NCBI RefSeq assembly: GCF_000143415.4
Contig: NW_003314317.1
Span: 999,183-1,063,182 of the forward strand
Reading direction: 5' to 3'
Source: Selaginella moellendorffii
Lineage: Eukaryota; Plantae; Lycopodiophyta
DNA length: 64,000 nt
Part shown: positions 17,267 through 47,937 of the stretch, piece by piece
How positions within the stretch are numbered: position 1 is the first letter of the stretch
Layout of the letters: each line of letters opens with the position of its first letter
Notes under the pieces: model-generated
Told to the model about the DNA's origin: nothing
Database searches by the model: none
What the model saw: only the letters and a program-made list of their open reading frames with translations
Position numbers and translations under genes: made by a program

Positions 17267-18333
17267 TGTAAGCGACTAATTTTTCCATTCTACTTTAATC
17301 ACTTAACCGCACCTCCGACCACTTGGAGGAGTCTCATTCACAACCTCCATAAGTCCCATTCAGAACTTGGGGCTTGCTAGCCCCGAGAATGGCATCCACG
17401 CCACTCAACCTTTGCACTTGGTCCAAGTGCTCCATGTGTCTGATCCCATGACCAACACCCCAAGGTACCACCGACATACCAGCCCGTTACGCTAGGCCAT
17501 GCCCATTCACTTTGGTCACATCGGTGGTCCAACACCACCTGCATTACAATCCCGTCTCTCAAAGACTAGGTCATCCATCCATGAGTGGCTATCCCAGATC
17601 CACTCCATAGCATCCTCAGGATGCCTGCAGACATGGGGAATAGCCTTCCCCAATGTCTCCTTTCCGGTCCCCACCAAGTCCCTTCCTGCCCATGGCCGTC
17701 TTCACCAACACTGCCACTGAATCAAGGCCCACAAGCCCGACCACCAAGTCCAACTGTCCTATGGGACTTCCTCACTGTGTGACTGTGTCCTTTGTCACCA
17801 CACCAGAGGGCTACTCCTCTTCCTTTCCACAGTCTGGGACCTTGGGGCAACATTTCGAAACACCGTGGCCCTACGCGAGCCTCATGGGTACTCTCCTTGC
17901 CTTCTGCCTTTGGGTGCTCTAGCCATGGGCTTAGAGCGAGGTTCCGTTGAGCCACACTAAGTATCCAAGTAAGTAGTGCCACCCACTCTTGGACTTGGAG
18001 CATCGGCCAGTTGATCTCCCGGGGGAACTAGAGCCGGCTCTTGAACACTTCACCAAGCTACCCCGCTTGTCGGTCCGTGTTCACTCTAGTCTTGGACTTC
18101 CCAGTGGGCAGCTCATCACCCAACACTGGGTATAACCTTCCTGGGCCAAACTGGCCTTTCCTGGCCAAACTAGCTCCACTGCAGTCCTCCCCCTTACTAT
18201 ACTTTTGGAGCTCACCAAACCCCCCAGGGTCTGGGAGACGAACGCTTTGGGCTTTCACCCTCTCAGACTCGGACTCAGACTCGGACTCAGACTCGGACTC
18301 GGACTCGGACTCGGACTCGGACTCGGACTCGGA

Positions 18334-18368
<35 letters not shown>

Positions 18369-18911
18369 TCTCAGCCTCGGCCTCGGTCTCGGTCTCGGTC
18401 CTGATCTCGGTCTCGGTCTCGGTCCCGGCCTCGGTCTTGACTTCGGACTCCATCTCAGGTCCATCTCGAACTCCATCTCGGACTCCATCTCAGACTCCAT
18501 CTCGGGTCCATCTCGGACTCCATCTCAGGTCTATCTTAGACTCCATCTCGGGTCCATCTCGGACTCCATCTCGGCTCCATCTCGGATCCATCTCGGGTCC
18601 ACTTCGGACTCCACCTCGGACTCCATCTTGGGGTCCTTCTCGGACTCCACTTTGGACTCCAACTCGGGTCCATCTCGGACGCTTCCACGTGTCATGTGTT
18701 GGTCCTTTTGGGTCCCTTTTTAGAGCCTCGCTTATTGCTCACTTTGTGCTTGTTCCTCGAGCACTTTGTTGGGAGTTCCACTCCCGCTTTTGACTTTTCA
18801 AGTCGGAACTTTTGATTCAAACGTGTTACGCTCGTTTGGCTCTCGCTTCGGCCACTACCATGTGGCGCCCTTTCGGCTCCACTTTGGGGCCTAGGGATTT
18901 TGTGTCTCACA
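17267..18911 (-). repeat. 5' LTR of element A
   Basis: Direct repeat of 3215-4895, adjacent to the PBS. Confidence 0.92.
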
Positions 18912-19547
18912 AACACATTTGGACTAAAAGTTTCAACTCGGAAAATCAATAACAAGAGTGGAACTCTTAAAGAAGTGCTCAAGGAATGAGTATAAAGAAT
19001 TGATAAATGAGTCTTTAGAAAAGGGACATAAAAAGGACCAACACTTTGTAAGTGTTATGATATGTGAAAGTGTCAAGACTGAGTCTAAGTTCGAAACCGA
19101 GTCCGAGATGGAGCTTGAGGCTGAGTTTGAAATAGAGCCCAAGACAAAGTCCAGGATGAAGGCCGAGACATCTTAGATGGTCAAATCTGAGATGGAGCCC
19201 GAGGTTGAGTTTGAGATGGAGGCCAAGACTAGGTCCAAAATAAAGTCTGAAAATGAGACTGAGACTAAGATTAAGACCAAAATTGAGTCCATGATAATAT
19301 AACCACTAAGGAGTCCAAGATTAAAGTGAACATAAATAGACAAGTGGGGTAACAATGTTCAAGAGCCAGCTCTAGCTCCCTTGGGAAATCGAATGGTTAA
19401 TACTCCCAATCCAAATATAGGTGGCATTACCTACTTGGATACTTAGTGTGGTTTATCGAAACCTCACTTTAGCCATATGGTTAAGGAGCTCGCATTAGGT
19501 TGTGATGTTTCAAAATGTTATCCCAAAGTCCTGAACCGTGGAAAAGA

Positions 19548-19636
19548 TGTAGCACACTTTATTTCTCTCCTCTTAAGCCAATTAGAAAAGGGGCAATTGC
19601 TTGATGAAAGAGCCCTTAGTGGCTATTTTATCCCCA
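19548..19636 (-). mobile_element. Partial copy of the 152-bp LTR family
   Basis: TGTAGCACACTTTATTTCTCTCCTCTTAAGCCAATTAGAAAAGGGGCAATTGCTTGATG matches the reverse complement of the end of 44864-45015. Confidence 0.8.
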
Positions 19637-26087: not shown

Positions 26088-26478
26088 ATGGGACGAGCAA
26101 ACGCGCTGGAAGGAAAGCTCGACCCCCAGCTGTCCCTGTCCCCTCTTCTCATTTTTCTCCTTTCTTTTTACTCTGCTTTCCTGTGAAACCAGAACAAAAC
26201 CTTTTCAGTATCACCTTGAGGAGCATAGCCAGAAATAAGAGCAGTCGAGCTTACCACATCCTTGCGAGAAGATCAAACACTCACTGTGCCTCGCTTGCAC
26301 TGCCGTATTTTTCATAAGTGTCCACCAGGCTATGCAAATCTCTCCGTGGAAAAACTTTCTCAAGTTGGAAACCTCGCACAAGCCTTTAAAACGGAGTTGA
26401 AGCTCGATGCCATTTCGAGTGAGATCGGTGTCATGGATAACAGTGTTGGACAGGAAGTGGAAGAACGTGGAGGTGGCT
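26088..26478. pseudogene. Scrambled PPR gene fragments related to 45736-47937
   Basis: About 26090-26113 and 26400-26476 match about 47685-47707 and 47724-47806 forward. About 26180-26400 matches about 47255-47517 in reverse. Confidence 0.75.
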
Positions 26479-28491: not shown

Positions 28492-29329
28492 CTAAAGTAT
28501 GGCAAGCAATATGTTGGTGTCAACGTCCTGGGTCCATAGTCCACCTAAGCAGCTTGGGGACGAGGTGGCGCTTGTGTGGCGCATAAAAAACTTTTTACTG
28601 ACTTAGTGTGAAGGCCTGACGATTGTGGGTGTTAAACATCGTGTGAAGACTTAAACTCAACAATGTTAACATGTGAGGACTCTAGCAATGGATTGAGCAT
28701 CACGATGTCATGCAATTGTCAACAAGATATTAACACGTGGCCTCCCGGAACAGCGCCAACAGAGATCCGTGGTGGTCCGCATTCTTCTTCTCGGTCGCTT
28801 CCTCGCCGCCGTGCCCCGCAAGCGGCACTGCCACCACCAGGATCGACGCTCCTCTGTCCGGTCCCGTGTCGGTGACCGGAAGCCCTCTCTGTGGTCGTGG
28901 GATTAAGTCGCTGTGGAGAAATCACAAGGAGCCCAATCCTTCCGGCTCTCAGCTTCGATCGCGGCGTCCACGTGTGGATCTGCGTTGGCGCTAGGAATAG
29001 CTTATGTGTTAGATCGACTCGGCAGGATATTTTCGGGAGCTCAGGATCGGCAGGGTCGGTTGACGACATTGCTTCACTACCCTAGCAGCGCGGGCATGTG
29101 AATGCAGGCAGTAGCAAGTGTAGCCTTTGCTCTGCCCATGTCATCTTCTTCAAGACCGAGTGCTAGGTACTGCAAGAAAAGCTTCTCTAGTTTGTGATCT
29201 TACTTTGGTGGCACTAATCTTCTTCGTTTTCCTTTCCAGGTGTGTAGTTGATTGTTATTTGCAACAGGTGTGTGATTTGGGCACAAAGTGTCTTCAGTAG
29301 CAACCCCTACCAATGCAAATTCAAGGTGG
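28492..29329 (+). mobile_element. Probable 5' part of the decayed gypsy element split by the DNA transposon
   Basis: Joins 42647 onward across the GTGG TSD. No clear intact domain. Confidence 0.45.
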
Positions 29330-29989
29330 AAGCTCTATTTCGTTAAAGTGGGATTTATTCAGTAAAATGGGACTAGGTACAAATTTTCAAGTATTTGAAA
29401 ATGACGTGAAATTATATGTTTTTTGTCCAGGGGCTAGACATATCTGGGGCATGGTGACTAGCGCGGTGACCTTATGTCCAGACTGAGTCCATCTAGTTGT
29501 ATAATAAATCTCATTGTCAAGGTGAACAAGCCGAATCTGAAGCTAAAGAAGAGCGATGGCATGCGCGCACACACTATTTGTTTGTTCATTGAGCGTGTGG
29601 TGAGCTTTCCAAGATGAACATCATTCCTATTAGCCAGACATATAACTTAATGGTGAGAACATTTAGATATTATTCAATGTTATCTTTTTCTAACGAATCT
29701 AATTGTGAAGGTGTAGCAAGAGGCATTGCTAGTCTGGAGAAGTCATTTAACTCATTTGACCCTTAGTGTATTTTCATGAAACTAAATAACATTCATATTA
29801 TTAAGGAATTTCTCTAGTACCTTTTTTTTACGACATAGAGGCTTGCATTTCTTTCAAAGGTGATTTAGTAAAAGGCCTGAGGGCACATGCCATTCTATTT
29901 CTCAGACCGGTATTAAGATATACTAGTGCAAAGGGAAAAAGGTATTTGGTGATCAAGTAAATGGCATGAGGGCACATGCCATTATAAGC

Positions 29990-30311
29990 CTAAGCGCTAG
30001 TGGACACCTCCTTTTTGGTACTCTCAGCGGTACTATCATCCTTCTCCGGGTCAGTTGTTTTGCTTTGGATTGTTGTCTCTGACGTTACTGGGGCGTTCTC
30101 GATAGTTGTTAATGTTGCCGTTTGTTCAGAAAAATGATCACCTGGAGTATAGTACGGGGAGTTTGGAAGACTTATATATTCTACATCTTCACCTATCTCC
30201 TTCTCCGTCTCCTTTTCTGCCTCACTTACAGATTTTGTGCTTGCCATGAGAACGCTCTTCACCCTAAAATATGGAGTTCGTTGTGTTATAAAAGGAAACC
30301 AACACACACGC
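29990..30311 (-). CDS. Possible extra or alternative exon downstream of the transposase
   Basis: Open frame after a TTGCAG acceptor; low-complexity product. Confidence 0.3.
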
Positions 30312-30462
30312 TGCAAGGGAATGATGGTACATAAAGCACGTAAGCCCACAATATGGGTTTATGTGCCATTAATATGGGCCACACGCCATATTATTAGATT
30401 TATGCACGTGTGATTGGTAAATGCATATGTCACATCATCTTTGTTTTACCTCACACACTATA

Positions 30463-33400
30463 TCAAGCCTCCTCTGATTCAGATTCGGATTGTTCACCTT
30501 GAAATAAAATACATTAGAAACTTTGTAAAGGAATATTAATGAATCTCACCTTGAACCCGAGTTATGAATGCTCTTGCTGCATCTCTTGCATGGTCTGGCA
30601 AGGTGATGGTGGCACTCTGCTTCCGCATCCAACCATGCACAACATTATCCACCGATATGCTCATGCTGGGATCCCTTGGATTCAGCACCCATCTCTTTTC
30701 TAGGCAATCCTTCGTATATCCGGAACTTGGCTTGAACCACTCCACAGTTACATTGAAGGAGTTAGTTTCCGCGTCCTCCTCTGCATCAGTGATGTAGCGC
30801 CCCACCCATATCATTTGTTTTTTATTACTGGGTCTGACAAGCACGACCATTCCTTTGCAGACCTGTACTGGATTGAATGCTGAATCCGGCTTCTTGTTCC
30901 TCGGCCCACAATAGTGATCCTCAACATCGTTATCTGTCACTGCATTTCCAGAGGACATTGTTCCGCTACTATCTGGTGCTCTGGGTTCTGGCCAAAAGGA
31001 CTCTTCCAATTCTTCATATACAACCGGCCCATTTTGGATAGCAGATATAATCTTCTCCCAGTATTCGAGCAAAGGCTTGCACCTCTGAAAATAGGATTCT
31101 CCACCAAACACCAACCCCCTCTTCCAGAAGGCAATATGCTGTCTAATCCCGGCCACTATACTTTCCTGGTCTTTGAGTCCATCCGGGTGCATCGGCCGTG
31201 GGGAACCCTGAGGAATCATAGGTTCCCCAGTTATGGGATCTCTCTTGAAGAGTTCAATGCCGTCCACTGGCAGCCACACTGTGTCCCATTCTCTCATCTT
31301 GTACCTCATCACTGGAGCACCGTCACACATGTTGAAATGAAACTGAAGAGGCTTGGAGTGGCCAATCAGCGTTTCGGATCCATCCCTGATGTAGCCTCTT
31401 ACAAACCCCTTAAAGTCTGGAACCTCTGTCAGAAGTGCAGCTTCAACAGTGCCTTTGATGCAATTTTGGAATTCATCGTAGAGTTGTGGGAGGGTGAGGA
31501 CATTGGATCGCCGGAGGGACTCTGCCAGGTGACTGAACATGGCATCGACGTCTTCATGAGTGTGCCCAACCATGAGAAAGCCAAGTGTAACCGTTTCAAA
31601 TATGCCTTTGGCAACAAGCATCGCCAAGTACGCGAAGACGTACATGTTTTTGTTCTCACTGCCAGCATTGTCTGTTTGGAGCAGAAGATGGGGTGGAAGG
31701 CCACATCGGCCGCAAGAACTTCCTTGAGATTCTGCTTCGTTTGGATGAGGCTGTGCATTCACCGGGCGACCAGCCTCGTCGGAATGGCATGAGGCCTCAC
31801 GTGATAACCCTACAATCTGACGGCCAACATATTCACTGGGATGGCATGGGGCCCCACGCGATACTGCAAGCCTTTGCTCCTCCTCCAGCTGAACCCTGTA
31901 TGGGGTTCGATCGACAAGGGCCTTATGCAAGGGTTGGCTGTTCAGCTCAGTCTGCGCACTTTGCAGAGACCTTAAGTGTTTTGCTAGGGACGCAATCATC
32001 ATGTTTGCACCCCTGCCACCCCATAGAGGTACAAAGAAGTTCCCATAGTTCTGGGCACCATGCCCATGAGCGATTATGCCAAACAGAGACACAGGCAGCT
32101 GCATGGATGAAGAGATTGCCTTGGGGGCAGGATTGAGTCGAGGTAAGCACGTCTTTTTCTGGTCCATTTTGTCGTGGATGATGCAGAGGTAAGAGTCAGG
32201 TCTCTCCATGGAGAGAATCCTGTTATGATAATATGCAGTCCTGCAGCTTCTCTGCTCGATGTTGTGGTCGAGCCGCCTTCTAACCAACGTCTCTCGCTCT
32301 TGAGCGCTGCAAGAATTCTTCGACAAAGCCATTTTGATAGCAGTGCACTCGTCACACTTTGAAAAGCTGGAGTACTTTCCTATACTCACATCCCTGAACC
32401 TGTTGCTCCACAATCTACTAAATCTAGATTGGCTCAGCTTCCTGTAGCCATTACTCTGGAGTTCCCGATTCACATCTTCCAATATGGCCCCCTTGGTATA
32501 CATGGAAGGGAGAACTCGTTGGGTGTCTCGTGTTCCATCTTCCAAGAGGCGGGTTTTATGTGGTTGCTGCTCGCTACATGTCTCGACAAACCTCTTGAAG
32601 ATTGCCTCTCCATATACAACATGACCCCTGGTTTTGTGCGTACCGTCGTTCCCATGGACTGCCTGTTGAACCCTTTGTTCCTCGAACTCAGTTTTGATTC
32701 TGTAGAATGTGCTTCGAGGGACTCCATAAATGATTCTCCATGCCTTCATGCAGACCAAACCCCTCTGGAAGACCATGCCCCCCACCTGATGTTCTGAAGC
32801 ATCAACAGATGACCGTAATGCCTCATACACAAAATTGCGAGCTGCCTTCCAGGACAATGTCTTGTATCTTGCTCTCTCCTCTTCAATAGCATCCCAATCA
32901 GCATGTTGACAACACCTCCTCTTGCAACAAGCAACTGTCGAGACCATTCGAACCTCCATCGCCATTTTCTGCCTTTTCGGTTCGTTGCTCAGATCCCTTT
33001 GGCTGCGCTTTAGGAAGGTGTACTTTCTTTTCCCATGAAGAGATGTTCTGTCATCAGTTGTAGTGGTGTTTGATTGTGAATCCTTCACATTCTCAAACAC
33101 TAAGTGCCTCAATTTCCACCGCACAATGCTTCCAATAGTCAGACTGTTTTCTTCTGTGTCAACAACCTCTAAAATCGCAACTCCAATATCATCCCAGCCC
33201 AATTCTTGATTAGCAACCGCATCTCTTGGATCGACAACTGTGGCTAAGCCCTCAGCTACCACCTCCCCCTCAGGGTTGTTTAGAAACACTTTTGCCTGAA
33301 TCCATGTAGCACGGTTCTTAAGATCCACGGAGGGAACATGCGTCGCACTTGCGCTGTCCCCAACATCTGCTTTCTTCTGAAGATTTTTCAAGGCAACAAC

Positions 33401-33604
33401 AACATTTACCCCGACGACCATCTCTCCTCGTTCAATAGCGACCACATTCCCATCGAAGACAGTCTCTACTGATACAGCAGCATTGCCTTCCCCAAGCCTT
33501 TCACAGTGTATAACAAAGTTCCGATCCATAGACACAAGGGTCCCTTTTGCAACTCTCTTCCCACCATTCAAAATGTAAACCTTTTCCCCAACCCTGAAGG
33601 CCAT
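30463..33604 (-). CDS. DDD-type transposase (Sola1-like / DUF7869-like)
   Basis: 1022-aa ORF with KCDEC, IHDKMDQKKT, LQTDNAGSENKN and FLMVGHTHEDVDAMF motifs. Probable terminal intron adds GEQSESESEEA* (stop at 30463-30465). The superfamily call is by recalled motifs plus the 4-bp TSD. Confidence 0.8.
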
Positions 33605-33724
33605 TCTGAAAGTGCAGAAAAGAAGTTAAGACCATACAAAAAATGATTGGAGAATGGCCTAAATCATAACATACCAAACAACCTCAATAGCATGAGGCCA
33701 CATGCCATTATCAAACATGCTATG

Positions 33725-33824
33725 NNNNNNNNNNNNNNNNNNNNNNNNNNNNNNNNNNNNNNNNNNNNNNNNNNNNNNNNNNNNNNNNNNNNNNNNNNNN
33801 NNNNNNNNNNNNNNNNNNNNNNNN
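33725..33824. other. Assembly gap (100 N)
   Basis: Run of N. Confidence 1.
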
Positions 33825-33998
33825 CTGACTAAGCAAGGGAAGAGCACGGATAGCGTCATGTTGCCAAATTGCAAGGGCCCAAGATGGCATGTGGCCTCAT
33901 GCCATTTCTAAATGTGGTCCTAAGCCATTCCATGGTGAACATACCAGGAAGCACAAGTGCCGAATATCAAGAGGAAGCGGTAGCCACACCAAAGACAG

Positions 33999-34135
33999 TG
34001 CCGCTCGCAACACCGCAACTACTCGTAGCGCCGCTCGCAACACCGCAACTGCTCGTAGCGCCGCTCGCACAAACTGCCACTCGCATAAACTGCCGCTCGC
34101 AATGGCGCTCGCAATGCCGCAACCGCTCGTAGACG
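33999..34135 (+). repeat. 30-bp GC-rich tandem repeat (GCCGCTCGCAACACCGCAACTRCTCGTAGC)
   Basis: Two clean copies plus degenerate copies. Confidence 0.75.
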
Positions 34136-34964
34136 CATAAACCACAGCCCACAACGCCGCTTACACAAGCAGCGCTCACTGCGCTCAGCGGAACCAAGAA
34201 CACGGCGCACAAAAATGATAGACCTAGGAATGAGTTCGAGAATTCAAAAATAACACACGCTTGAACGTCACATCAAATCCTCTGACAAACCAGATCTTAT
34301 GATTCCTCTGACAAATTTCAAACTGAGTAGCTTCTAGACTTTGCTGTCGGAGGTTGAACTTTGTCACATCATGTCCTTGCCTCGATCCAGCTGTGCCATG
34401 TCAGTGATTCGAACTTTGCCATGCCATGTCAGCGATCCGCGCCAAGATTATTCGCCGTGTAAAGGAATAATTACGCTGTGTGTGTACGTCCATTTATGGC
34501 AATATAAGGCCACACGCCATTCAAAGAATAATGCTCGACATAAGGCCACACGCCATTCAAAGAATAATGCTAGTCGAGCATTTTTTGGTGCATTTTTGGG
34601 TTCAAAATTGCATGAGCCCACACGCTATAAAGTTTACCTGTACCAAAAATAGAAACAGCTTTATTTACTTGGGAATTTAAGTGGTTGAGGCATTTTTAAA
34701 CTTACAAACACATGCCCTACTTACATTCCTTTGGTTGCCTAAAATTCAAAAATATTATAAACCTTTCTTTTTGCATTTTCAATGTTTTCAATTATGGTTT
34801 TTGATTTTCGTAGGACCAGCCTAGTAATCTATTTGCATCCCGTCATGTTTATAGCTAGCTTTCGTTCGTCCCCTTCGCTAGCCTGAGATACATCTGCTCG
34901 GCATCTGCCTCTTACAGCATTTGCCCAGAAAGGGCATCTTTCTTCACGCAGCATTTGCCACATG

Positions 34965-34997
34965 TTTAGGGTTTAGGGTTTAGGGTTTAGGGTTTAG
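34965..34997 (+). repeat. Interstitial telomeric repeat (TTTAGGG)x4.7
   Basis: Direct observation. Confidence 0.95.
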
Positions 34998-36625
34998 CAA
35001 TTCAGTAGCTTGATAAACATGCAAATACAGAACTTGATGCAAAATCCTTTGATATGTCACAATGCCCCTAGGACCATAAACACATTTCAATAGAGAGGGT
35101 CCTTTCATTTCATAACTCCTTACGTAGATCTTGGTGAAACCAGAGTTAGTGAAGTTAGTTTCTTGTGATCCCGCATCTGATTGTGATGTCCCTTTGCAGT
35201 TTCGATGGAAAGGTCAATGCACACCAAACTGTGAAATCTTGGAGCAAAATAACGGTCGGATCTATGGCAAATGCCCCTGAAACATTGTAAGGCTCGTGTG
35301 GTCTTATGTGGTGTCCGATTGAGATGCTTCTTTGCAGGGTCATCAAGAAAGACATTGTATACCATTCTGTAAAATCTAGTTGCGATCTAACGGTTGGATC
35401 TCCATAAAACTCAAAAAAATCTCGCGCGTGTCAGAATATCCTAGGAATATACTCCTATGTGCCCCTGAAAATGGCATGCGGCCCCACGCCATTCAAGAGA
35501 TAATGCCAGATGACGCCGAGAATTTTTTGGTGCATTTTTTGGGTTCAAAATTGCATGAGCCCACACACTATAAAGTTTATCTTTGCCAAATAAAGAAAAG
35601 TTTATCTGTGTCATGTGAGGTAGTTACAGTCCTTTGTGCTCGGCATCTGCCTCTTGCAGCATTTGCACTGAAAGGGAATTTTTCTCCATTCAGCATTTGG
35701 CCCTGAAAATGGCATGCGCCCACACGCCATTCAAGGAATAACGCCACAGGACGCCTGGATTTTTGGGTTTAAAATGTTTAGGGTTTTTTGGGTTTTTTCA
35801 AAATATTTTGGGTCCAACGTTTTTTGGGTTTCTTTGGTTCAAAATTGCATGAGCCCACACGCTATAATATTGATTTGAGAGAAAAATAGAAACAGATAGA
35901 ATTTCTTTATTTAGCTGAACATCTGCCATTTTTGGAAATACAAGATGCTTTGGAATATCCAATCATGCATGGTATAAATATAGCGAGGGTATTAAATGAT
36001 ATCCCAATCATGATCTTTCTTTTGGATTTCGCGTGCATGCAGTCCGAGGAATGATGACGTTGCGGATTTCTTTTGGATTTTGCATGCTTGCATGCGCGCG
36101 GCAATCCAGAAATTAATGGTGGCGCCCAAGTCCGAGGAATGATGACGTGGCGGGATTACCAACCGTTGTGACATTTCGCGCGTGTGAGGTTAGGTTTGCG
36201 ATTTTGCTTTGTACTCGCACTCGCACACTCGCGCTCGTGCTCGCACACTCGCGCTCACGCTCGCATCACACTCGCGCTCGCATCGCGCTCCCACTCGCGA
36301 TCACGCTCACATTCGCGCTCATCTACCTTCTCTACAGGTTTCTCGTGTGCATCGGCGTCCACTCGCGCTTGCATCACACTCGCGCTTGCATCGCGCTCGT
36401 GTGCATCGGCGTCCACTTCAAGACACACCCAGTTTGTAACTTTGCCGCCAACTCCGCCGCCCACTCCGCCACCCACACGCAGCCCACTTGGCGTCCCGGG
36501 AGATTTCAGTGCCACTCTCCAACTGTAAGTGGCAGAGTAGCCTTGCTGCTACGATCCGCTGCACACACAGTGCACATTCGCTAGCGAGTCCGGCCTTGAT
36601 TGTCACGGCCTCCATTCGACTTCAA

Positions 36626-39600
36626 ATGGTAAGTCTTTTAGGCCAAGTAGAAAATGGCATGAGGCCACATGCCATTCAGTAGCAACATTGGCATGCACCG
36701 ATTGGGCTCTCGAGTGCAGTCCGGTTACAGATGGCGTGTAGCCTCACGCCATCTTAGGATGCAGCCTCAAGACATCTGATGCAGTGGTGAATGGCGTGTG
36801 GCCTCACGTTATTTCCAGCTGCTAGCTTTTCATCTGTCAGCTCTAATTGTTGTGCATTTTTGAACAGGCGAGGAATTGCGTTCTTCTTCCAGCCACTGTC
36901 AATGTGGATGCAGAGAAGGGGGAGGAGCTCACCAGTTGGACTTTCGGGATGGAAGGCGAGGATCTGATGCTGTACAACACAGATGGTGGGAGAAAAGAAT
37001 GCATGGGGATCCTCATCCAAGTGACAGACACTCCATGCAGTTCCATGCAAGAATATGGACTGGCACTTGTGGTAGAGACAGCGTCCGCCTTCAAGATCCA
37101 CCTTGCACATCCTAGCGGCTTCCCGGAGGGGGGCAGCGGCTATGAGGAATTCCTAGAGGGAGCTAGGGAGAGGTTGTCCAGGAGGCCCACAATTTCAAAG
37201 ACGCTGCGGGTCTATGAAGATCATATGGAATCCACGGACCTCACCTACGGCGATGTTCAAAAACTATATTCCAACATTGAGCCGTTGAGAGTGCCTCCAG
37301 TTTGCGAAGCGAAGGGGAAGGGGGTCGATCTGGAAACTACCCCGAAGCAGAAAAGGGTGGTCAAGCTCAAGCCGACGTCCGACTCTGCTGCTCCAAAAAA
37401 GAAGCTACTCGGTGATGCCATTGCCTCGGGTTCGAACACTACACCCACCAAAAAGAAGAGCCGCAAAGAGCAGAAAGAGCAAGAAGAGGCAGCAAAAATC
37501 GTCGCAGATAATAGTACTTGTTACTATTCCAACAAAGTATTACAATCGACGTGAGCCGTATCGAGATCCAAAGCAAATACAACCACAGGCTAGTATCTGA
37601 TGAGTGGGTGGAGAAACTGAAGCAGAAGATGCTGGCAAGTCCAGTAACACCCGACATCGCAGACGTGATCCCCTACTACCGAACAATGAAGGGCGAGACG
37701 AGGTTTCCAGACTTGATCAATAGGAAGGTGTTGGACGATCAGAACATCCGGTTCTATGCCGTCTCCGGGCAGCATTCTAGCTTGGCGATGCAACAGATAG
37801 TTGTGGATATTATGGTGGGCGAGGAGGTGAAGAAAGTCTTCAAGACAAGAGTTGTCCGCCTGATAAAAGGCAACTCGCCCCTCCGATCTATCATATACAT
37901 CTCCCACGCGCAGAATGTCAAGCAAGAAACGTGCTACAAATCGGGTCTGCACGAGACATTGGCACGAACACGGAAGCTCTGGGTTCAACTGAAGAAGCCA
38001 CAAAAACCAGGACAAGGACGTGCACTAGCAACTAGCGCCTGGCAGGTAAGCCTCGTTGCATGTGGCATAGCATGTGGCCTCACGCCATTTCCATTGCAGG
38101 AATTCTCGAGTCTTCTCTCGAAAACACTGGGGGTCAATGACACACTCAGCATCCATAACATTCTACTCGCGACAAAAGTTGTTTTTGACAAATGGGTAGA
38201 TGTGCTAAGGAGGTACCATGACGGGGAGTTGCTAAACTCAATGGGTGTGGAGGACGGCCGGAAGCCCAATGATTTGAAGCTCAACGCCTTGCATTTCTCG
38301 CGGTCTCTAGACGACGACGACCTTCTGACAGTGGCTAATGCTCTTCTACTTGGTGAGGTAGTCTTCAACAAGACCAAAATGACTCCCGGCCATATTGTGA
38401 CATACGAGGACTTGTGCACGACTCTGAGAGCTCGTGCGCTATTGAAGGATTGGATCTTCGAGCAAGTGGCCGTGGCGAGGGTGAGCATCGACACCACGCA
38501 AGAGATGATGGAAGAGCTGGACTTGTCAAATGAAGACATCGACGAGTACGTGAAGGGGGCCCCCAAGTTCATCGATCTGCTGCGGGATGCCACGAAAAGT
38601 AAAGCTGAGAAGTTGGATCAGTATCCAAATTTCATTAAGAGGGATGTCGACCGCCGGCTTCAGAAACAGCTCGACCCCGCAGCAGAGGCCTATCGAGAAC
38701 CTTACCGGGTATACGTGAATTCGGATGAGGATCAAAGGTGGAGGAGCATCGTTTCCCGTGGAGATGAGCAGGTCAAGAACATCTTTTGTGTGATGGACTT
38801 CACAAACGAGGAGATCACTCATGCAGACGAAGTCAGCTCCATCATTGACTTAATGGTGGGACTTGCAGAGGTGGAATCTTCAGTCCACTATATGATCTAC
38901 GACTCCGAATCCTATCACAAGTTCTGGAAGGCCTTGAACGAGGTGAAGGCTCGGTTGAAAGGCAAGGAGATGCGGGAGATCCATGGGATAATGGCTAAGA
39001 AGAAGATACCGACGAATGTCCGCATCTTCACAGTCGCCCTTGTTATTGGTCCTGCAGAAAAGTGGGACTGGAGTGACTTCCCAGCTTCGTTCAACAAAGC
39101 CGATCGAATTGATCTGAGGGAGGTCAATTTACCCGTGCCTGAGGAACTGAAGACGGCTATGGAGCTTTCGAATCCAAAGAAAGCTCCAGGTGCAGCATGG
39201 GAAATGCTCAGCTGGGTCTTCAACGCAATAGCGGGTGACTCCAAGGGCAAATGCGTTGTCGAGTACAACTGCGGCGGACTATTCTTTCGAGCCGCACTAC
39301 TCAAGGGTGTCCCGTGTGTTGCGGTGACAAACTCCATTGAAGAGGTGACTTCAATGGAGCATATAATTACAGTTGCCAAAGAAAAACAGTATCTTCTCTA
39401 CGAACCTGGTGAGTACGCACTTTAAGTTTAAATGTTATCTCACAAGCTCTGTATGCAGGAGCGTGGCCACCCCCAGATGCTGAAACGGCGTTAACAGCTA
39501 CTGATGTTAGGCCGAGGTCACAACCTGCACAAGGTAAGGTCACGTGAGGCCTCACGCCATTTTGATTATAGATCGTTGTGAATATTCAGACACGAGGACT

Positions 39601-42215
39601 GAAAAGCGCACTGGTGGCGCGTCGAAGAAGGAAAAACAGACAAGCAATAGGAAAAAAGGAGGTACAAACTATATTTGCAATGGCGTGTGGTCTCATGCCA
39701 TTCCTTGCAGGAGACACTTCTTCAAAGGCAAAACAGGCAAGCACCAGCCAAGCTCAAACTGACAGTGGTCATAAAAAGCGAAAGCACGTTGGACAGTCGT
39801 CGGGATCAGAGGCGTTTGATTCGAAAAGGAAGAAGGGCAACGAAAAGATGATAGGTAATGCCTCGCGGTTATGGCGTGTGTGCTCATGCCATTCATTGCA
39901 GATCAAGGGCTGAGTGAAAGGAGCCAGTCACCACCTTCTGACTCAGATTCCTATGGCGGACTCCCCTTCCCCAATCTCAATGGAGAGGTACAATGGATGA
40001 GGGATGCTTTTCAAGTCAGGGCCACGTTTTTCTCATCTCGTCGTCTTCGAAGTTTGCAAGAACGTGCAGAAACCATGTTAAGACAGTCGGGTGAGGATAC
40101 GGTCCTAGGTCACGCACTAAAACAGGCTATGGATGTCTTGTATTTTGAGATGGAGACTCGGCCAGATGATTTTTCCAAGATGGTCCTGGAAAAACAAGCA
40201 ATCCAGCCTGAGCAGCCTATGGAAGAAATGCAAGAGGGGGATGAGGAGCCAGAGAAAGATAATGAGCAGGAAGAGCAGAAGGACGAAGAGGAGGACGAAG
40301 AAGAGGAGGACGAAGAAGAGGAGGACGAAGAGGACTTGGATGGTCCTCACAATGGTGACGATCACAATAATGACGAGGACGATGATGATGATGATGGCCA
40401 GCCTAAGGTGGCCAAAGAGCAGCGGAGGAAGGTCATACAAGACAAACCATCAGGTAAATAATAGTACATCCATTCCTAACCTTTTACCATTTCTAACATT
40501 GTCCATGTAGGTCGCAGAAGAAATGGTAAGTAGAGATTATTCAGTTGAATTAAGATACAAACTCTAGCCTTTAGTGTCGAGGAAGGATAGTGCCAAGCAA
40601 GGGTCGAAACGTATGTCCAATCCTTCAGAATCAGCAGTGCGCCCAAGTGATATCGGTCCTAGTTCCTCAATAGCAGTTGATGGTAAATACAGTATAGTCG
40701 ATTCAATGTGCTAATGAGTTTGTTTTTAGTAGCACGGGAGGATACCATCTCAATCGAAGGGAGATATTTGGACATGCATATGGATCCGCCAGTGGACTCT
40801 ACTTGCATGCAAGAGTCATCAGAGCTGGTGGAGGCTACTATCCATATCAACGCCAAGCAAGCTGACCACGCTCCACTTGATGCTGCCCATACCACTGAGT
40901 CAATCTTGTCCACGTATCCAACTGACGGTGACCAGGCGCCATTGGACCCGCATGAGGCCGCCCCAGCCGCCGAGCCGGTCGTATCCTCATTTCCAACGTG
41001 TGCCCAATCGTCTGACTACGCGCCGTTGGAACCTCCCTACACCGCCCCTGCTGCCTGTTCGGTCATGTCCACTTTGCCAACGGAGGCACCAGCTGAAATG
41101 GCGTGTGATCACACGCCATCGGAACCACCCCATGCCACTGTTGAGCCAGTTGTACCAGAGTCTACAGCTGAAATGGCATGTGCCCACACGCCATCGGATG
41201 CGATTGACCCCACATTGCAGAGGAGAGTATTTCTGCCCTTCACGTTTCCTCGACCAAAACCCTCTGAACGACCATCGGGAGCACCATTCGCTAATATTGT
41301 AGATGGTAAAATTGACTTGTACCATTTTTTATGCTAACGCATTTCATTTCAGAGTCACGGCGAAAGTACTGTATCGTTTTTGATCTGAACGGTGTCCTTT
41401 TCTCCCATGAGCGTGGCTCGTCCTCGAATGTCACTGCACCCTCCAAAGCCTGCGGTCGCAAGTTGGTCAAAAGAGACAGATTCACATTAATCACACGGGA
41501 GAAACTGCGGGATCTAATAATGACCATGCGACACTTAAAACAGAGGGCCGGGTTCAATTTGCAATTGGGAGTTTGGACATCCATGATGCGCCACAATGCA
41601 TTAACGTTGCTACAGATGATGCACGATCAGACGCGAGTAATATTACCATTTGACTTTCTCCTAACGCAGGAGGATTGCTTGACTATGGTCCATGTGAGGG
41701 GTAGCAAGCCCATCTTCGTCAAGGCAGAGGCTGTAGTGATGAACCGGACTGCTAGGTCAAGTGAAATCCTCATCATCGATGACTCGCCGATTAAAACTGC
41801 AGCGAACACGCACACATATGCAGTGCACCCCATCTCTTGCAGTATGGAAACTAGGGAGAAGAAACCGTATGTTCTGGGGGACCTTGCAAAACGGCTTGAA
41901 GCGATGGTGATAGAGAACCGGCCAGTCCAGGAGGTGGCTGCAGAAATCAACCAAATGGCAGATGGAACGGTATATCAGAAGCCATTTGATCGGACAGACA
42001 CCAGTCATCATTTATGGCATGTATATTGTCTAGCCAAGCACTATCCGCATCTCCATAATCTGCTCAACCGGATGGGTTCTTCGACCACTGAACATGAGCG
42101 TGGACGTATTAGAGAAGAGATGGCATTACTATTGGGTTTAAATCCTGATAGTGTGGAGAGTGATGAAATTCCAAGATTATTGTATAGGCGTTGGAGGCAA
42201 AAAATAACAGTCTGA
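36626..42215 (+). CDS. Multi-exon transposon cargo gene: ParB/Srx-like + degenerate amino-MTase-like + acidic linker + FCP1/NIF-type HAD phosphatase
   Basis: GT-AG introns 36629-36867, 38046-38099, 39409-39458, 39534-39589, 39662-39710, 39855-39901, 40454-40510, 40526-40574, 40683-40729 and 41306-41352 join the ORF pieces in frame. One unresolved frame break near 37510-37550. Motifs FYAVSGQHSSLAM; KCVVEYNCGGLFFRAALLKGVPCVAV; IVFDLNGVL and LIIDDSPIK. Confidence 0.72.
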
Positions 42216-42646
42216 GATGGCATGTATTTATTTAAAAATGTAACTTATTATGGCATGGGGTTCCATGCCATTGTATTAATATTAAAAGACAATTCTTTGA
42301 GAGGATTTGCATTATACTAGAAGTGTTACAGCATGTTATTGGAAGTCTACGAAGTTGTTTTATTAATAAGGGGAAAGTAAAGATTGAATGGGGACTTGGG
42401 CTCCACCTAGACTCGGAGCAACTGAGCCAATATTAAAAGGATGGAAAGAAATTGGACGACGATGACAAGGAGAAGAGAGAGGTGAAGCAGTGAGAAGTGA
42501 TTGAGTAGACATTTCCTTGTTTATAATAAAATGGCATGTGCCTCAATGCAGTTGAATTTTGTTATATTTATATACTATATAAAGGTTTGGAAACCTTATT
42601 TTACAAGTGGGATAATGACAATTCCCACTTTAACGAAATAGAGCTT

Positions 42647-45466
42647 GTGGGGAGTCAAGGATTCTCGGTTGCTTTGTTTGCAGGTGAGGGATACTATGGG
42701 GCTTGCCTTTTAAGACCTCACAGCAAACTGGAAAAGGTGGTGGCCTCATTTTTCTCTTTGTTTGCATTTTGAGAAACAAAGAATCTGGAAAGTGTTTGGT
42801 GGGGGTAGTTGATAGTAGTTTAAACCTGATGGGAGTATTTATTTTTACATTAAATATCATTTGTTAAATGTAGTGATGATCCTAGATGTGTGCCCTCTTG
42901 CTCACACAACTGATATCTTGGATTGTTTGGGGAAAAATTGTTGATTCATCAAGTTAGATTTTGCTTTTGGCCGAAGAAAATATTCTTAAGACTGTTTTTT
43001 GTATATCATTTGATTTGTACGAGTTCTTGGTGATGTTGTTTGGTTTGAATAATGTTTTAGCAACTTTCCAGCGGATGATGGATAAAGTTCTTTATGATAT
43101 GCCAAAAGTGAGTATTGACTTCATCGATAATGTCTTAATCCACTCAGAAGGGATGATGTCTTAATCCACTTGGAAAGGACATGGGAAGAACACGTCCATG
43201 ATATTCGTAAAGTGTTAGATTGGCTACAATAAGTTGGTTTAAAGTTGAAGCAGTCGAAATGCATATTTGGGTTCAAGGACACGACTTATCTTGGGTATCG
43301 TATTTCTCGTGAGGGTTTGCAAGTTAATCCTAATAAACTTGTGGCTATTCCAAAGTTCCCTACTTCGAAGTGTGTGAATGATGTGTAGTGCTTCTTGAGT
43401 AAAGTGCAATATCTTAATCGTTTTGTGAATCATTTTTTTGATTGCACTGCACCGTTACAAACGTTATTGAAGTCATTAACATCATCTTTCATCTTGTCTG
43501 TGGATTGTGAGCGAGCGTTCATGGATCTCAAGGAGCTATTGACGACTCCTCTGGTTTTGGTGTATTTTAACTACACTCGACCTTTCATTTTGCGCATGGA
43601 TGCTTCTGATATTGGTCTTTGAAGTGTATTGATGAAAAAAAGCTTGAATCTACTTGGTCAGTGCTATTTTATTGCATATATAAGTTGTACATTACAACTA
43701 GTGGAAGCAAACTACTCAATGATAAAGAGTTTACGGTTTTAAGAAACTTTATGCATATCTACATAGTTCTCAGATGTTATTGGAAGGTGATCATGTTGCT
43801 GTTACTTTATTATTGAAGTGGAAGAACTTGATTAGTCGTACTGTTCGGTGGGTTTTGAAGCTTTAGATATATGATTTTGATATTGCTCATTGTTCGAGGA
43901 GTTTTATAGTTGATGCTGATGCCCTTTCTTAAGCTTCTTTTATTTCTTTGCTCTCTTCTCATGTTTCTGACGAGCCTATTATTTTAGCATTTATAGATTT
44001 TCTATACGAGAATTTTATATAGTCGGTGGTGCATCATTTGCTGATGACTTACCATTCTGGCATTTACATTCTTAATATCGCTTTGAGGATGGCTTTCTTT
44101 ATTTTGTGGGGACAGACCTTGATAATCATTTATCGTTGGTGGTGCCTTTAATTTTTATTCCATGGTTTCTCCATACTTACCATGATTCTCTTATTCTAGG
44201 CAGGCATATAGGACATCATTGTGTGATTGAGAAGTTACACAAGTCTTTCTATTAGTCGGAGATGCAACGTGATGTTATTTGGTATATGCATAACTACATT
44301 TAGTGCCAAGCTTATAATACTCCCCCTCGTGCTATGGAAGGACAATTGGAGTTAATTGCAATTTCTCATCTGTTTAAGTTGGTGGCATTTGATCTTATGG
44401 AACTTTTTTCATGATCGACTTTTGGCAATGAATATGTTATTATTGCTTTTGACTACTTGATTTGCTGAGTGAAAGTTGGTGCTCTTGCTAGTGCCTTTGC
44501 AATTGATGTTAAATACTTCCTCCTCAATCGAGTGGTGTTCCAACATTCTTGTCCAGAGCGAATTCTTTTGGATAATAGTCCCACATTTATGGCTAAAGTA
44601 TTTCATGTTTTGACGTTTTAATTAGGGATATGCCACACTTTCATGAGTGTTTATTATCCATAGTCAAACAGTTTGGTGGAACAGCTTTTTCGAACATTCA
44701 AAGGGATGATCACGAAGTACGTGAATTTTTAGCATTTGGATTGAGATGGTTATTTGTTATTTCTTTAGTATGCATATGTCATAAGGGTGTAGAGTTTTGT
44801 TAGTGCTTCACCATAAAAACTCTTATATGGTCATGATCCAATATTATCAACAAAGTTGGGTTGTGTAGCGCATGTGATCATGGGATGAGATTTGGATATA
44901 CTGTCACCGTGGATCCTTGGAACCTTGGGGGATAAAATAGCCACTAAGGGCTCTCTCATCAAGCAATTGCCCCTTTTCCAGTTGGCTTAAGGGGAGATAG
45001 ATAAGGTGCGCTACAGGTTGACCTTTGTGATTACCACGAGCTATTAATGCTAGGTCGTGGGATCAATATTTGACGAGCATTCTTTCATTTATCCGAGTAG
45101 AGTTTGCCGAACACTTGGGTTGCATATAAATGGGAGAACAACAACGCTACAGCTCTCATCATCATCCACTTGTGGAGTACAAAGTGAATGATTTGGTGTT
45201 AGTCCATTTTCTTATGATATGTGGTTTATCTAAGAGGCTCCTTGCTTAGTAGAAAGGATTGTATTAGATGTTGCAGCAAGTTGGATTGTAAGTTTATGAG
45301 GTTTGGCATGACGTTTAGTAAGCCGATCCTTCTTCGTACAAAGGGATTAAAAAGAACTAGTACCACCTATACATCTATAAATGCCTTTTTTTTATGTTCC
45401 TTTAGATCCCGGCTCATCTACGAGAAAATTTTAATGATCTTTCATTATTCTGAGAGGAGGGGATAA
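42647..45466 (+). mobile_element. Decayed Ty3/gypsy pol (RT, RNase H, integrase) with PPT
   Basis: LYEFLVMLFGLNNVLATFQRMMD...FIDNVLI (RT), PFILRMDASDIGL (RNase H), integrase-like remnants, GAGAGGAGGGGA PPT before TGTG at about 45467. Many stops. Confidence 0.88.
44864..45015 (+). mobile_element. 152-bp solo LTR with TSD GGTTG
   Basis: TGTAGCGCA...TGCGCTACA termini; GGTTG at 44859-44863 and 45016-45020. Confidence 0.9.
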
Positions 45467-45735
45467 TGTGATATCCAAGTGTATAGCTATGATGCCATAT
45501 ATTAATATTAGTGTAGTGGGATTTTGGTAGCTGTTGAATTGGTTTTAATACGGACCACTCATATACAAGTTAGGGTTTTTGGGCTAATTAATATGCATAT
45601 TTTTTATATTCCCTTTTTATATTCCACTATTAATTAAGTTAAGGATTTACATTTAACATGTGTTGTACATATAAATATACATCATTTGATATTATTATTA
45701 AAATTAGTGAAAAGGAAGATGAACCCTAAAATGCG

Positions 45736-47937
45736 ATGGACGACAGAGGTATGTTTTGTAGCGTCCCAGTTGTTGCCGAATCTTTATGCGGCGCCTTGTC
45801 TCTTGCCCCGACCGGATGCAACAGCCCAGTATCTCGGCAAGCCTCCAACGCGAATCTTGTCACGCATGACGCAACCCACATCGAATCTGTCCACGCATCA
45901 TTGAAAGCTTGCATCAGGACCAAGGATTTGCAATGGGGGAAAGTGATCCACTCGCAAGGAGCGATCCTCCTTTCCAGGAATGTTAATCTGGCCAATTCCC
46001 TCATCACCATGTACTGCAAATGCGGGAGCCTCGACGACGCTCGCAGCGTTTTCGATGGGATGCTACTCCGGGACGTGGTTTCCTGGAACGCTTTGATGCA
46101 AGGGTATGTGGACGCTGGCCAGGGAGGCAAGGCCTTAGAGATTTTCTCGCGGATGATGGAAGATAGCGGCTGTGACCCGGATGCTCGGAGCTTCGTAGCT
46201 GCGATCAAGGCTTGCTCCAGCGAGCTCCAAGAAGGAGAGTCTTCGACAGATTCGGATGGGAAAAAGCTCTCGATCAGGGGGAAAGCTCTCGACAGAGGGC
46301 GATGGATTCACTCTCAAGCTGCAAAGTTTGGCTGCGAATCCAACATGTTTGTTTCGAGCTCGCTCATCGACTTTTATGCCAAGTGTGGACGTTTGGTTGA
46401 CGCGCGCCGGGTTTTTTCCAGAATGCGAGTTCGCGACGTGGTAACTTGGAATGCGATCATTCTGGGACATGCCGAGAACGAGGAGCCGGAGCTGGCTTTG
46501 GAGTTCTTCTCGAGCATGCAAAGGGAGGGGAGTGTTCCAAACTCTCGAACTTTCGTCGCGGCGATCAAGGCTTGTGCTGTTCTTGCCGAGTTTGAGTCGA
46601 GCACTAGAGTGGAGAAGTCTGATGTGAAGGTGGCGAGCTTGGAGAGAGGCATGGCTCTTCACTCGCAAGCGGAGAGAAGTGGCAGTGTCTCGGACGTGTT
46701 TGTGCGGAATATTTTGGTGGATATGTATGCAAAGTGTGGAGACGTAGAGGATTCCCGGCATGTTTTTGACAGAAGTTCCCATCGCGACGTTGTATCCTGG
46801 AACGCTTTGATCCTGGGATACGCAGACAACGGAGAGGAGCATCTAGCTTTGGGGCTTTTCTCGAGCATGCCCAAGCCAAACTCTCGAAGTTATGTTGCTG
46901 CTCTAAAGGCTTGCAGTGCTCTGGCAGCTAAAGAACAAGGCAAGGAGTTTGATGGAAAAGCTGGCATCAAAATCGATTCTTTGGAGAAAGGCATGGCTCT
47001 CCACGCTGGAGCAGCGATATCCGGCTGCGAACTCGATCACTTTGTAGCAAACACTCTGGTAGACATGTACGTGAAGTGTGGTAGCACTGAAGATGGCCGC
47101 AGGGTCTTTGAGAAAATCCCACACCGGAGTGCTGTTTCGTGGAGCGCTTTGATTCTGGGCTATGCAAACAACAGACAGGGGAAGCTGGGACTCGAGCTTT
47201 TCTTGCAAGAAATGGAGAAAACTCCGGGTTTGACACCAAACGCTCAAGCTTTCAACTCGGTTTTAAAGGCTTGTGCGAGCGTTGCCAACTTGAGAAGCTC
47301 CAAGTTTTTTCACGGAGAGATTTGCAAGAGTGGATGCGAAAGTATCCCTGCGCTGGGGACGAGCCTGGTGGACTCTTATGGAAAATGCGGCAGTTCGAGC
47401 GAGGCACAGCGAGTGTTTGATCTTCTCGCGAGGAACGATGTGGTAAGTTGGACTGCTCTTATTTCTAGCTACGCTCATCAAGGTGATACTGAAAAGGTTT
47501 TGTGCTGGTTTCACAGGATGCGGGACGAAGGAATTCAAGCAAATGAGGTAACTTTGCTGTGTGTTCTCTCGGCTTGCAGTCGTGCGGGATTGAGCGACCG
47601 AGGGAAGAAATACTTTGAGGCAATGGTTCCAAAGTTTGGTGTCACTCCGAGCATAGAACACTTCCACTGCATGGTGGACATGCTGGGACGAGCAAACTCG
47701 CTGGAGGAGGCGGTGTCCATGGTAAGCTCGATGCCATTTCGAGCGAGCTCGGTGTCATGGATGACAGTGCTAGATGGTTGCAGGAAGTGGAAGAATGTGG
47801 AGGTGGGAAAGCTCGCGTTTGAATCGCTGCTGGAGCTGGACAAGCGAGATTGCGGTGCGTACGTTGTCATGGCAAACATCTATGAGAGTGTGGGGATGTT
47901 TGAGCAGGCAAAAAGCAGCAGAGAGAAAAGAGAATGA
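45736..47937 (+). CDS. PLS-class PPR protein with E domain
   Basis: 733-aa intronless ORF: NSLITMYCKCGSLDDARSVFD, DVVSWNAL repeats, HFHCMVDMLGRA, AYVVMANIY. Confidence 0.93.
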   Translation: MDDRGMFCSVPVVAESLCGALSLAPTGCNSPVSRQASNANLVTHDATHIESVHASLKACIRTKDLQWGKVIHSQGAILLSRNVNLANSLITMYCKCGSLDDARSVFDGMLLRDVVSWNALMQGYVDAGQGGKALEIFSRMMEDSGCDPDARSFVAAIKACSSELQEGESSTDSDGKKLSIRGKALDRGRWIHSQAAKFGCESNMFVSSSLIDFYAKCGRLVDARRVFSRMRVRDVVTWNAIILGHAENEEPELALEFFSSMQREGSVPNSRTFVAAIKACAVLAEFESSTRVEKSDVKVASLERGMALHSQAERSGSVSDVFVRNILVDMYAKCGDVEDSRHVFDRSSHRDVVSWNALILGYADNGEEHLALGLFSSMPKPNSRSYVAALKACSALAAKEQGKEFDGKAGIKIDSLEKGMALHAGAAISGCELDHFVANTLVDMYVKCGSTEDGRRVFEKIPHRSAVSWSALILGYANNRQGKLGLELFLQEMEKTPGLTPNAQAFNSVLKACASVANLRSSKFFHGEICKSGCESIPALGTSLVDSYGKCGSSSEAQRVFDLLARNDVVSWTALISSYAHQGDTEKVLCWFHRMRDEGIQANEVTLLCVLSACSRAGLSDRGKKYFEAMVPKFGVTPSIEHFHCMVDMLGRANSLEEAVSMVSSMPFRASSVSWMTVLDGCRKWKNVEVGKLAFESLLELDKRDCGAYVVMANIYESVGMFEQAKSSREKRE

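Follow-up and report, generated by a model that had tools for sequence, protein, structure and literature searches.

Accessory genes which combine a ParB-like part with an N4/N6-methyltransferase are known from giant DNA transposons of algae, including a Sola1 element. In the accessible text of PMC12477816, Sola1-1_Ec32 of Ectocarpus is described as 21.5 kb long with a 4-bp target-site duplication (TSD) and AACCG-CGGTT termini; its opposite-strand gene codes for a protein of 1,104 amino acids (aa), ParB-like and N4C/N6A methyltransferase in kind, which is proposed to bind and modify its own element, and Iyer et al. 2011 is cited there for green-algal cases. For the Plavaka element of Bostrychia, the body of a preprint (bioRxiv 10.1101/2025.02.11.637652) reports the PF01555 methylase PAG2 as well as PAG3, a weakly detected ParB-like protein with inverted-repeat arrays as its proposed sites. 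According to PMC5735166, VANC21 finds its binding motifs within the element that encodes it, both in introns and between genes. The locus described here belongs to the spikemoss Selaginella moellendorffii and was analysed within a stretch of 64,000 nucleotides (nt) of contig NW_003314317.1 (positions 999,183 to 1,063,182 of the forward strand), which as a whole is called the window and whose first letter is position 1. Positions 29330-42646 of the window constitute a 13.3-kb Sola1-like DNA transposon (length including a gap of 100 N) which encloses an accessory gene at 36626-42215. With a probability of roughly 0.55 we read this second gene of a cut-and-paste transposon as coding for a non-catalytic, palindrome-binding scaffold which helps the element to stay active or to transpose.

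The element is delimited and characterised by the following features.

29326..29329, + strand: left TSD, GTGG, 4 bp, the same bases on both flanks
29330..29356, + strand: left terminal inverted repeat (TIR), 27 bp, first 24 bp perfect, 96% identity between the pair
29556..42552, no strand: dispersed 22-bp palindrome ATGGCRTG-N6-CAYGCCAT, from end to end of the element
30536..33604, - strand: transposase, DUF7869 (Sola1-like), intact and stop-free, about 1,022 aa, Pfam PF25273 at E=2.5e-42
42620..42646, - strand: right TIR, partner of the left 27-bp repeat
42647..42650, + strand: right TSD, GTGG, 4 bp

An earlier note, made from the letters of the window, had assumed the accessory gene to be transposon-borne, and the element ends, the target duplication and the transposase bear this out; the position of those ends and the palindrome array had escaped the note. 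Transposase and accessory gene lie on opposite strands, head to head. The candidate acidic triad of the transposase is found in HDKMD, QTDN and GHTHEDVD, and three relatives share 32-34% identity with it. An intron within a 90-aa insertion of the transposase was considered and rejected, as the relatives carry a similar insertion in frame. We provisionally take DUF7869 to be the Sola1 transposase family, and the TIRs (27 bp, 96%) together with the 4-bp TSD agree with the traits of Sola1. The core of the terminal repeat, compared by eye, resembles the insect Sola1 TIR given in the accessible part of PMC3845634, and the AA...TT termini are the same as those which PMC12477816, as far as its text was available, gives for Sola1-1_Ec32. 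Since the single insertion site, GTGG, departs from the target preference AWWT stated for Sola1 in the former source, the element is labelled Sola1-like; for Sola1-1_Ec32 the latter merely lists the target duplication as biased to end in A.

The accessory gene was rebuilt from its coordinates on the + strand as 11 exons and 10 GT-AG introns, of which the first exon and the introns are as follows.

36626..36628, + strand: exon 1, predicted, start codon only, adjoined by a strong donor
36629-36867, + strand: intron 1, phase 0
38046-38099, + strand: intron 2, phase 0, 54 nt
39409-39458 and 39534-39589, + strand: introns 3 and 4, phase 1
39662-39710 and 39855-39901, + strand: introns 5 and 6, phase 1
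40454-40510 and 40526-40574, + strand: introns 7 and 8, phase 1
40683-40729 and 41306-41352, + strand: introns 9 and 10, phase 1

All but one of the ten introns measure 47-57 nt, and introns 7-10 have a G+C content of 30-32% as against 49% for the gene. The donor pattern G·GT(AA/GA/AC), the dot marking the exon border, is present at 10/10 model donors compared to 15/283 other GT sites, a contrast to be read in the knowledge that the pattern was set post hoc from the model donors themselves. A YTRAY branch point precedes five of the ten acceptors compared to 19/153 other YAG sites (p=0.004); a CTVAY count of 9/10, whose pattern had likewise been picked post hoc, is not used as support. Retention of any single one of nine introns provokes an early stop, the exception being intron 2, which is in frame and stop-free. 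Intron 2 coincides exactly with an alignment gap of the relatives described below, between W-Q and E-F, where their called frames often end. The predicted product comprises 1,631 aa if one placeholder base is inserted at 37540, with a sole stop at 42213-42215; without this base the frame of the window stops at codon 230. Exon 1 is the weakest part of the model, and a Met inside exon 2 could replace it as start. We hold it to be quite likely, judging from these signals in the DNA, that all exons are spliced into one mRNA. The proposals of the earlier note, i.e. ten GT-AG introns which link the reading frames, the last eight of them in phase 1, and a fusion of about 1600 aa, are thus reproduced by the rebuilt model (phases 0, 0 and eight times 1), the fusion at the level of a predicted sequence; the motifs quoted there are all present (GQH at aa 302, EYNCGG at aa 782, DLNGVL at aa 1355, IIDDSP at aa 1485).

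The one-base loss within exon 2 (37540..37541, + strand), which shifts the frame of this copy, was further compared with other sequencing runs. The contigs of runs X3 and X4, which traverse introns, are each one base longer behind 37540, while X1 and X9 have no coverage there. Because X3 and X4 carry the extra base, the break belongs to this copy or to its assembly, in keeping with the earlier suspicion of copy damage near 37510-37550; an intron at that place was rejected in view of the one-base difference shown by both runs. The other exonic insertions in X3/X4 (exons 3, 4 and 10) amount to net multiples of three in all four cases. Based on 40 of the 56 differences to other runs, 17 of the 23 C>T/G>A differences common to at least two runs are found in a CG or CHG context, compared to 36% expected (p=2.5e-4, among the differences listed). 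We read the present copy as young, silenced and decaying under host methylation.

A conspicuous property of the element is the dispersed 22-bp palindrome. The element holds 20 copies if 2 mismatches are allowed and 24 if 4 are allowed, whereas the remaining 50.7 kb of the window contain no copy with 3 mismatches or fewer. As the consensus was drawn from these very copies, the inside count is partly circular; this does not apply to the outside count. Of the nine palindromes within the accessory gene, seven fall into introns, which make up 12% of the gene (p=1e-5). Three introns (2, 5 and 6) each carry a palindrome whose end lies 9-11 nt ahead of the acceptor and which includes a CTCAY resembling a branch point; these introns may have arisen around the repeat. 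We slightly favour the view that the palindromes are candidate binding sites of the accessory protein. The alternative which survives best, although we consider it unlikely, is that they serve the transposase in the pairing of the ends or act as RNA hairpins or splice signals, the fused protein being a conserved passenger which works elsewhere, for example by acting via its NIF domain on transcription or on the processing of RNA. The location of the three palindromes immediately ahead of acceptors fits this alternative, as do copies near both ends and within the transposase frame, and an S. moellendorffii relative (of the cluster of P0001) which keeps the helical and methyltransferase-like parts of the protein and, as annotated, has no ParB core. 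On the other hand, the copies are spaced evenly across 13 kb without crowding at the ends, and in the accessible text of the Plavaka preprint a transposon superfamily unrelated to this one likewise has ParB-like accessory genes next to inverted repeats.

The putative palindrome-binding scaffold is composed of the following parts.

36868..37540, + strand: start of exon 2, N-terminal domain without family assignment plus basic linker, aa 2-225, no Pfam match
37541..37950, + strand: likely ParB/Srx-superfamily domain, DGQHR-like, with the motif GQH(S/T), aa 226-360
37951..38687, + strand: all-helical middle region, broken by intron 2, the most confident part of the model and conserved in relatives
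38688..39408, + strand: beta-class N4C/N6A DNA methyltransferase fold, from structure searches, catalytic motif gone, about aa 590-830
39459..41305, + strand: exons 4-10, each bordered by phase-1 introns, low-complexity linker of about 510 aa with basic, acidic and Pro/Ser-rich sequence
41353..42215, + strand: exon 11, NIF/FCP1-like HAD domain of DLNG type (domain about aa 1348-1500) with a C-terminal extension

Relatives were collected in one HMMER search of 1.84 billion representatives, which yielded 11 rows; 9 were kept, P0002 and P0005 being dropped as repeat-driven. Where a species name is given, it is S. moellendorffii or that of a liverwort, Calypogeia fissa. In P0003 and P0006 the N-terminal region precedes the ParB-like part in one frame, with weak similarity (E 0.047 and 0.013). 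P0001 and P0012-P0014 are annotated S. moellendorffii proteins of 379-451 aa with the helical and dead methyltransferase parts, annotated without ParB core and without NIF domain; possibly they are domesticated or truncated copies. Word-index searches for homologues gave no match, tblastn of phages remained empty or at chance level, scans of viral contigs for the NIF exon and the ParB-like part were without match, and sequence searches of the PDB revealed no relevant one. Neither the ParB-like nor the methyltransferase-like part is assigned to a family by Pfam, NCBIfam or PHROGs.

Within the ParB-like part GQH is found in 10/10 rows of the alignment, followed by Ser in eight and Thr in two, but never by Arg. 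In ParB/Srx proteins the Arg of the GxxR motif serves nucleotide binding. Pfam gives no match to this part. Compared with DGQHR/DndB-type proteins, a family which was picked after the motif had been seen, the plant profile reaches a probability of 60-63% at E ~8e-5, a score attained by 0/60 and 0/40 full column shuffles; a second template set gives E=8e-4. The match to classical ParB is weaker (E=0.028), and classical ParB itself matches the same DGQHR set less well (E=0.006) than does the plant profile. Over 600 scored bacterial genomes the plant profile has two weak matches (E ~0.02), not significant at that breadth, one of them to DUF1015, which we assume to be ParB/Srx-like, the match itself remaining non-significant. 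The nearest entries of the ESM Atlas are two unnamed Streptophyta clusters at 0.97 (813 aa) and 0.93 (1,673 aa), while the nearest named clusters are phage proteins with ParB_N and N6_N4_Mtase domains at 0.77-0.79, to be taken as a lead only. We regard a ParB/Srx ancestry of aa 226-360 as quite probable. The ParB/Srx resemblance claimed in the earlier note is hence retained as likely, with the DGQHR/DndB branch as best profile match; the reservations, a score owed mostly to one motif block and a fold search without ParB/Srx match, are taken up below. The adjacent all-helical region is a candidate DNA-binding part; its comparison with five helix-turn-helix middle domains of chromosomal ParB is not significant (E=0.068).

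For the methyltransferase-like domain, an AlphaFold2 model covering 37545-39407 was compared with 48,161 chains. The top 11 are all beta-class amino-methyltransferases (Z 9.2-11.1, root-mean-square deviation 4.0-4.7, 175-213 aligned residues), CcrM being the best match (Z 11.1, deviation 4.3, 194 aligned), while the next unrelated chain reaches Z 7.9. Foldseek places the same beta class in its top 10, at borderline E values (best 1.3e-3). In the same region the catalytic motif IV, [DNS]PP[YF], occurs in 0/18 rows, 10 of which cover the domain, and the FxGxG of motif I, which binds S-adenosylmethionine, is likewise absent from each of them, the place reading EYNCGG, EYGCGG or DINTGG. HPHVK or PRPK is kept in relatives where the phage enzymes have HPTQKP. 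Since the loss of the motifs is a trait of the whole family, the domain is probably no methylase, and judging from these residues we consider it very probable that it lacks methylation activity. Both earlier suggestions regarding this part, the beta-class amino-methyltransferase fold and its probable inactivity for want of DPPY/SPPY, have therefore held, the former through structure search and Foldseek, the latter because the motif is gone in the window and in every relative.

Exon 11 matches Pfam PF03031 (NIF) at E=4.4e-6 with 26.9 bits, the cut-off being 21.8. In the ESM Atlas it lies at 0.95-0.96 to NIF clusters, the nearest of which are giant-virus NIF proteins; this is not evidence of transfer. 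The HAD (haloacid dehalogenase) motifs II-IV are kept (VWTS, FVKA and IIDDSP align with VWTS, WIKD and IVDDSP), as is the nucleophile Asp. Motif I reads DLNGV compared to DLDET in the bacterial NIF protein L204, i.e. the second Asp of DxDx(T/V) is replaced by Asn. This second Asp of the HAD DxD acts as general acid/base. While the FCP1/NIF signature claimed earlier is thus confirmed by a Pfam score above the cut-off, the accompanying label of a phosphatase acting on the C-terminal domain (CTD) of RNA polymerase II is doubtful on the strength of this residue. A distinctly improbable alternative to the non-catalytic scaffold is that the enzymes are active, either with the NIF domain as a working CTD-type phosphatase of RNA polymerase II or with the methyltransferase marking the element via a non-standard motif. 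It may appeal to the preserved HAD motifs II, III and IV and nucleophile, to an Asp behind the second strand of the methyltransferase-like fold, conserved in 10/10 rows, and to the algal counterpart which the available text of PMC12477816 proposes to methylate its own element, yet it has to cope with the Asn in place of the acid/base Asp and with the absence of PP[YF] and FxGxG from every row.

Least probable, and slightly less so than the former, is that the NIF exon represents a separate gene or an optional tail, the working product ending in the linker, which would agree with the want of an RNA joint across 41306-41352, an ATG (41331) that precedes the DLNG motif in frame and a fusion seen in none of the relatives (none of the 9 being long enough), but in intron 10 the donor is strong, the branch point reads CTAAC, the G+C content is 30% and the phase is that of the seven preceding introns; ATG 41331 coincides with that branch point, has coding sequence upstream and leaves no promoter space, and the Streptophyta cluster of 1,673 aa in the ESM Atlas (0.93), for which domains are not given, has the length of the full fusion.

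The non-catalytic scaffold could operate as follows. The transposase, as implied by its family, would cut and paste at the terminal repeats. The second gene would be spliced to yield one 1,631-aa protein with the order likely ParB/Srx domain, helical region, probably inactive methyltransferase fold, long flexible linker and DLNG-type NIF domain. Its front half would derive from a prokaryotic ParB-methyltransferase fusion which lost its chemistry and kept its shape, and would bind the palindromes along the element, where sites within introns cost no coding sequence. Speculatively, the flexible linker of some 500 aa would bring the NIF domain into contact with a nuclear partner that is phosphorylated. 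The tethered domain might bind this phospho-partner or slowly act on it, thereby countering host silencing as VANC does for VANDAL, with the effect that the element is kept open or its ends are helped to pair. A bolder version, to which we assign only a low probability, envisages a ParB/parS-like self-recognition system in early land plants, made from three disarmed enzymes and shielding the element from silencing: the Arg-less ParB/Srx domain and the dead methyltransferase would load on the intronic palindromes and tether the DLNG-type NIF domain, which would trap or dephosphorylate a phospho-protein such as the tail of RNA polymerase II. If true, this would constitute an anti-silencing system unrelated to VANC and the first function for the DLNG clade.

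Several observations weigh against a palindrome-binding scaffold made from one fused protein. The pairing of the accessory protein with the palindromes is putative and the transposase could be their partner instead; moreover, three contigs (2-4 kb) of transposase relatives contain no copy of this palindrome. With the nine columns of the motif block held fixed, the mean shuffle score is 27.9 compared to 33.0 observed, and because 2/40 of these motif-kept shuffles reach the observed score the ParB signal stems mostly from one motif. Folded alone, the ParB-like domain attains a predicted local distance difference test score (pLDDT) of 50, and its best structural match (Z 3.6) is to unrelated folds, no ParB/Srx chain being listed. 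The mean pLDDT of the AlphaFold2 model is, at 54, of low confidence as well. In hhalign neither domain matched the profiles of 46 phage ParB-methyltransferases, a comparison which is underpowered as it also missed the structurally supported methyltransferase fold. The nine relatives are all too short to reveal a NIF fusion. No spliced joint is present in reads or contigs of any of four runs, and RNA run X9, of which about 12% was read, has nearly no depth past 36.9 kb, i.e. over the gene. Finally, 8 synonymous and 23 non-synonymous coding differences, among those listed, give no sign of purifying selection.

Further elements of the transposon and of its surroundings may be noted. Inside the left end of the element a second pair of inverted repeats of 25 bp (29517-29541 / 30478-30502, 936 bp apart) brackets a minus-strand frame of 122 codons (29990-30358) without Pfam match. 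In the spacer between the two genes (33830-36600) plant telomere-type repeats form a short run, accompanied by several dispersed repeats of 60-80 bp and two microsatellite-like tracts. Upstream of the start codon lies a 40-bp stretch (36522-36561) that corresponds to a highly abundant RNA of run X9 and recurs in numerous variant contigs of X3; the matching sequences diverge from one another on either side of it. We presume it to be the 3' end of large-subunit rRNA captured by the element; an Rfam scan of the stretch gave no match. Outside the element, 3000-19500 is occupied by a G+C-rich array with multi-kb repeated units, GACTCG-type tandem repeats and long repetitive frames. Immediately to the right, the sequence at 43000-43500 resembles, on inspection by eye of its motif, a decayed reverse-transcriptase fragment of a long-terminal-repeat retrotransposon. 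Inverted duplications of about 90% identity surround the element (26179-26401 / 47251-47518 and 19548-19635 / 44928-45015), one of them being a decayed copy of the pentatricopeptide repeat gene at 45730-47937. One neighbouring host gene, the only one found among ten looked up, groups with S. moellendorffii proteins, which agrees with the spikemoss as host.

With respect to the literature, no paper on the element or on DUF7869 was found, Repbase, Iyer et al. 2011 and Bao et al. 2009 lying outside the search and possibly listing it, and no land-plant example of the design, no catalytically dead form and no fusion to NIF was encountered, the bioRxiv supplements likewise lying outside the search. 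The text of PMC4738411, as far as accessible, treats phage ParB-terminase loci and inactive DIRS1 methyltransferases, and none of its eight SELMODRAFT mentions is a relative named here; a Marchantia preprint on N4-methylcytosine concerns, in its accessible part, active TSPPY enzymes.

Comparison with the closest systems shows what is shared and what is particular to the spikemoss element. Like Sola1-1_Ec32, as portrayed in the available text, it is a giant Sola1 or Sola1-like element with 4-bp TSD, AA...TT termini and an opposite-strand gene joining a ParB-like part to a methyltransferase. Sola1-1_Ec32, in contrast, resides in a brown alga, has a predicted methylase, no phosphatase in the main text and a TIR of 282 bp, whereas the spikemoss element belongs to a land plant, its catalytic motifs are lost across relatives, a NIF domain is fused and its TIR measures 27 bp, the proteins being compared by description. 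Plavaka, following the body of the preprint, is similarly a giant DNA transposon with methylase and ParB-like accessory genes and inverted repeats; it differs in belonging to the EnSpm superfamily, in having ParB and methylase in separate genes, fused to a 2-oxoglutarate oxygenase and a SET domain, and in that its repeats form tandem arrays adjoining the gene while the spikemoss palindromes are dispersed through introns. The phage fusions of ParB_N and N6_N4_Mtase and the enzymes CcrM, M.MboII, M.RsrI, M.PvuII and Adineta N4CMT share domain order and fold, but keep DPPY/SPPY and FxGxG, and sequence profiles give no match between them and the spikemoss protein, the ParB part of which is closer to DGQHR than to phage ParB_N. 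FCP1/SCP CTD phosphatases have PF03031 and HAD motifs II-IV in common with exon 11 and differ in motif I (DLNGV here, not DxDx(T/V)). VANC of the Arabidopsis VANDAL elements, with no homology expected, offers a functional analogy only, as an accessory protein which binds short motifs in introns and intergenic DNA of its element; the accessible source describes 8-9 bp tandem motifs in the same orientation, Mutator-like elements, and an anti-silencing function demonstrated for VANC.

Taken as a whole, the gene fits the design of giant-transposon accessory genes, located inside a TIR element, opposite the transposase, and with the methyltransferase behind a part which is only likely ParB-like. 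The earlier note had overstated its unusualness, as accessory genes of ParB and N4/N6-methyltransferase are published, in the texts available, for algal giant transposons including a Sola1; new here are its occurrence in a land plant, the loss of the catalytic motifs and the fusion to a NIF domain. The algal proposal of self-binding and self-marking by a ParB-methyltransferase becomes testable in a land plant: the element offers some 20 copies of a defined 22-bp candidate site together with an intact transposase, and in other runs the frame is open at the break. The fused NIF domain would link a transposon to nuclear phospho-signalling. Since, from spikemoss to liverwort, the catalytic motifs are lost while the fold is kept, the conserved function of this protein may be binding and not methylation.

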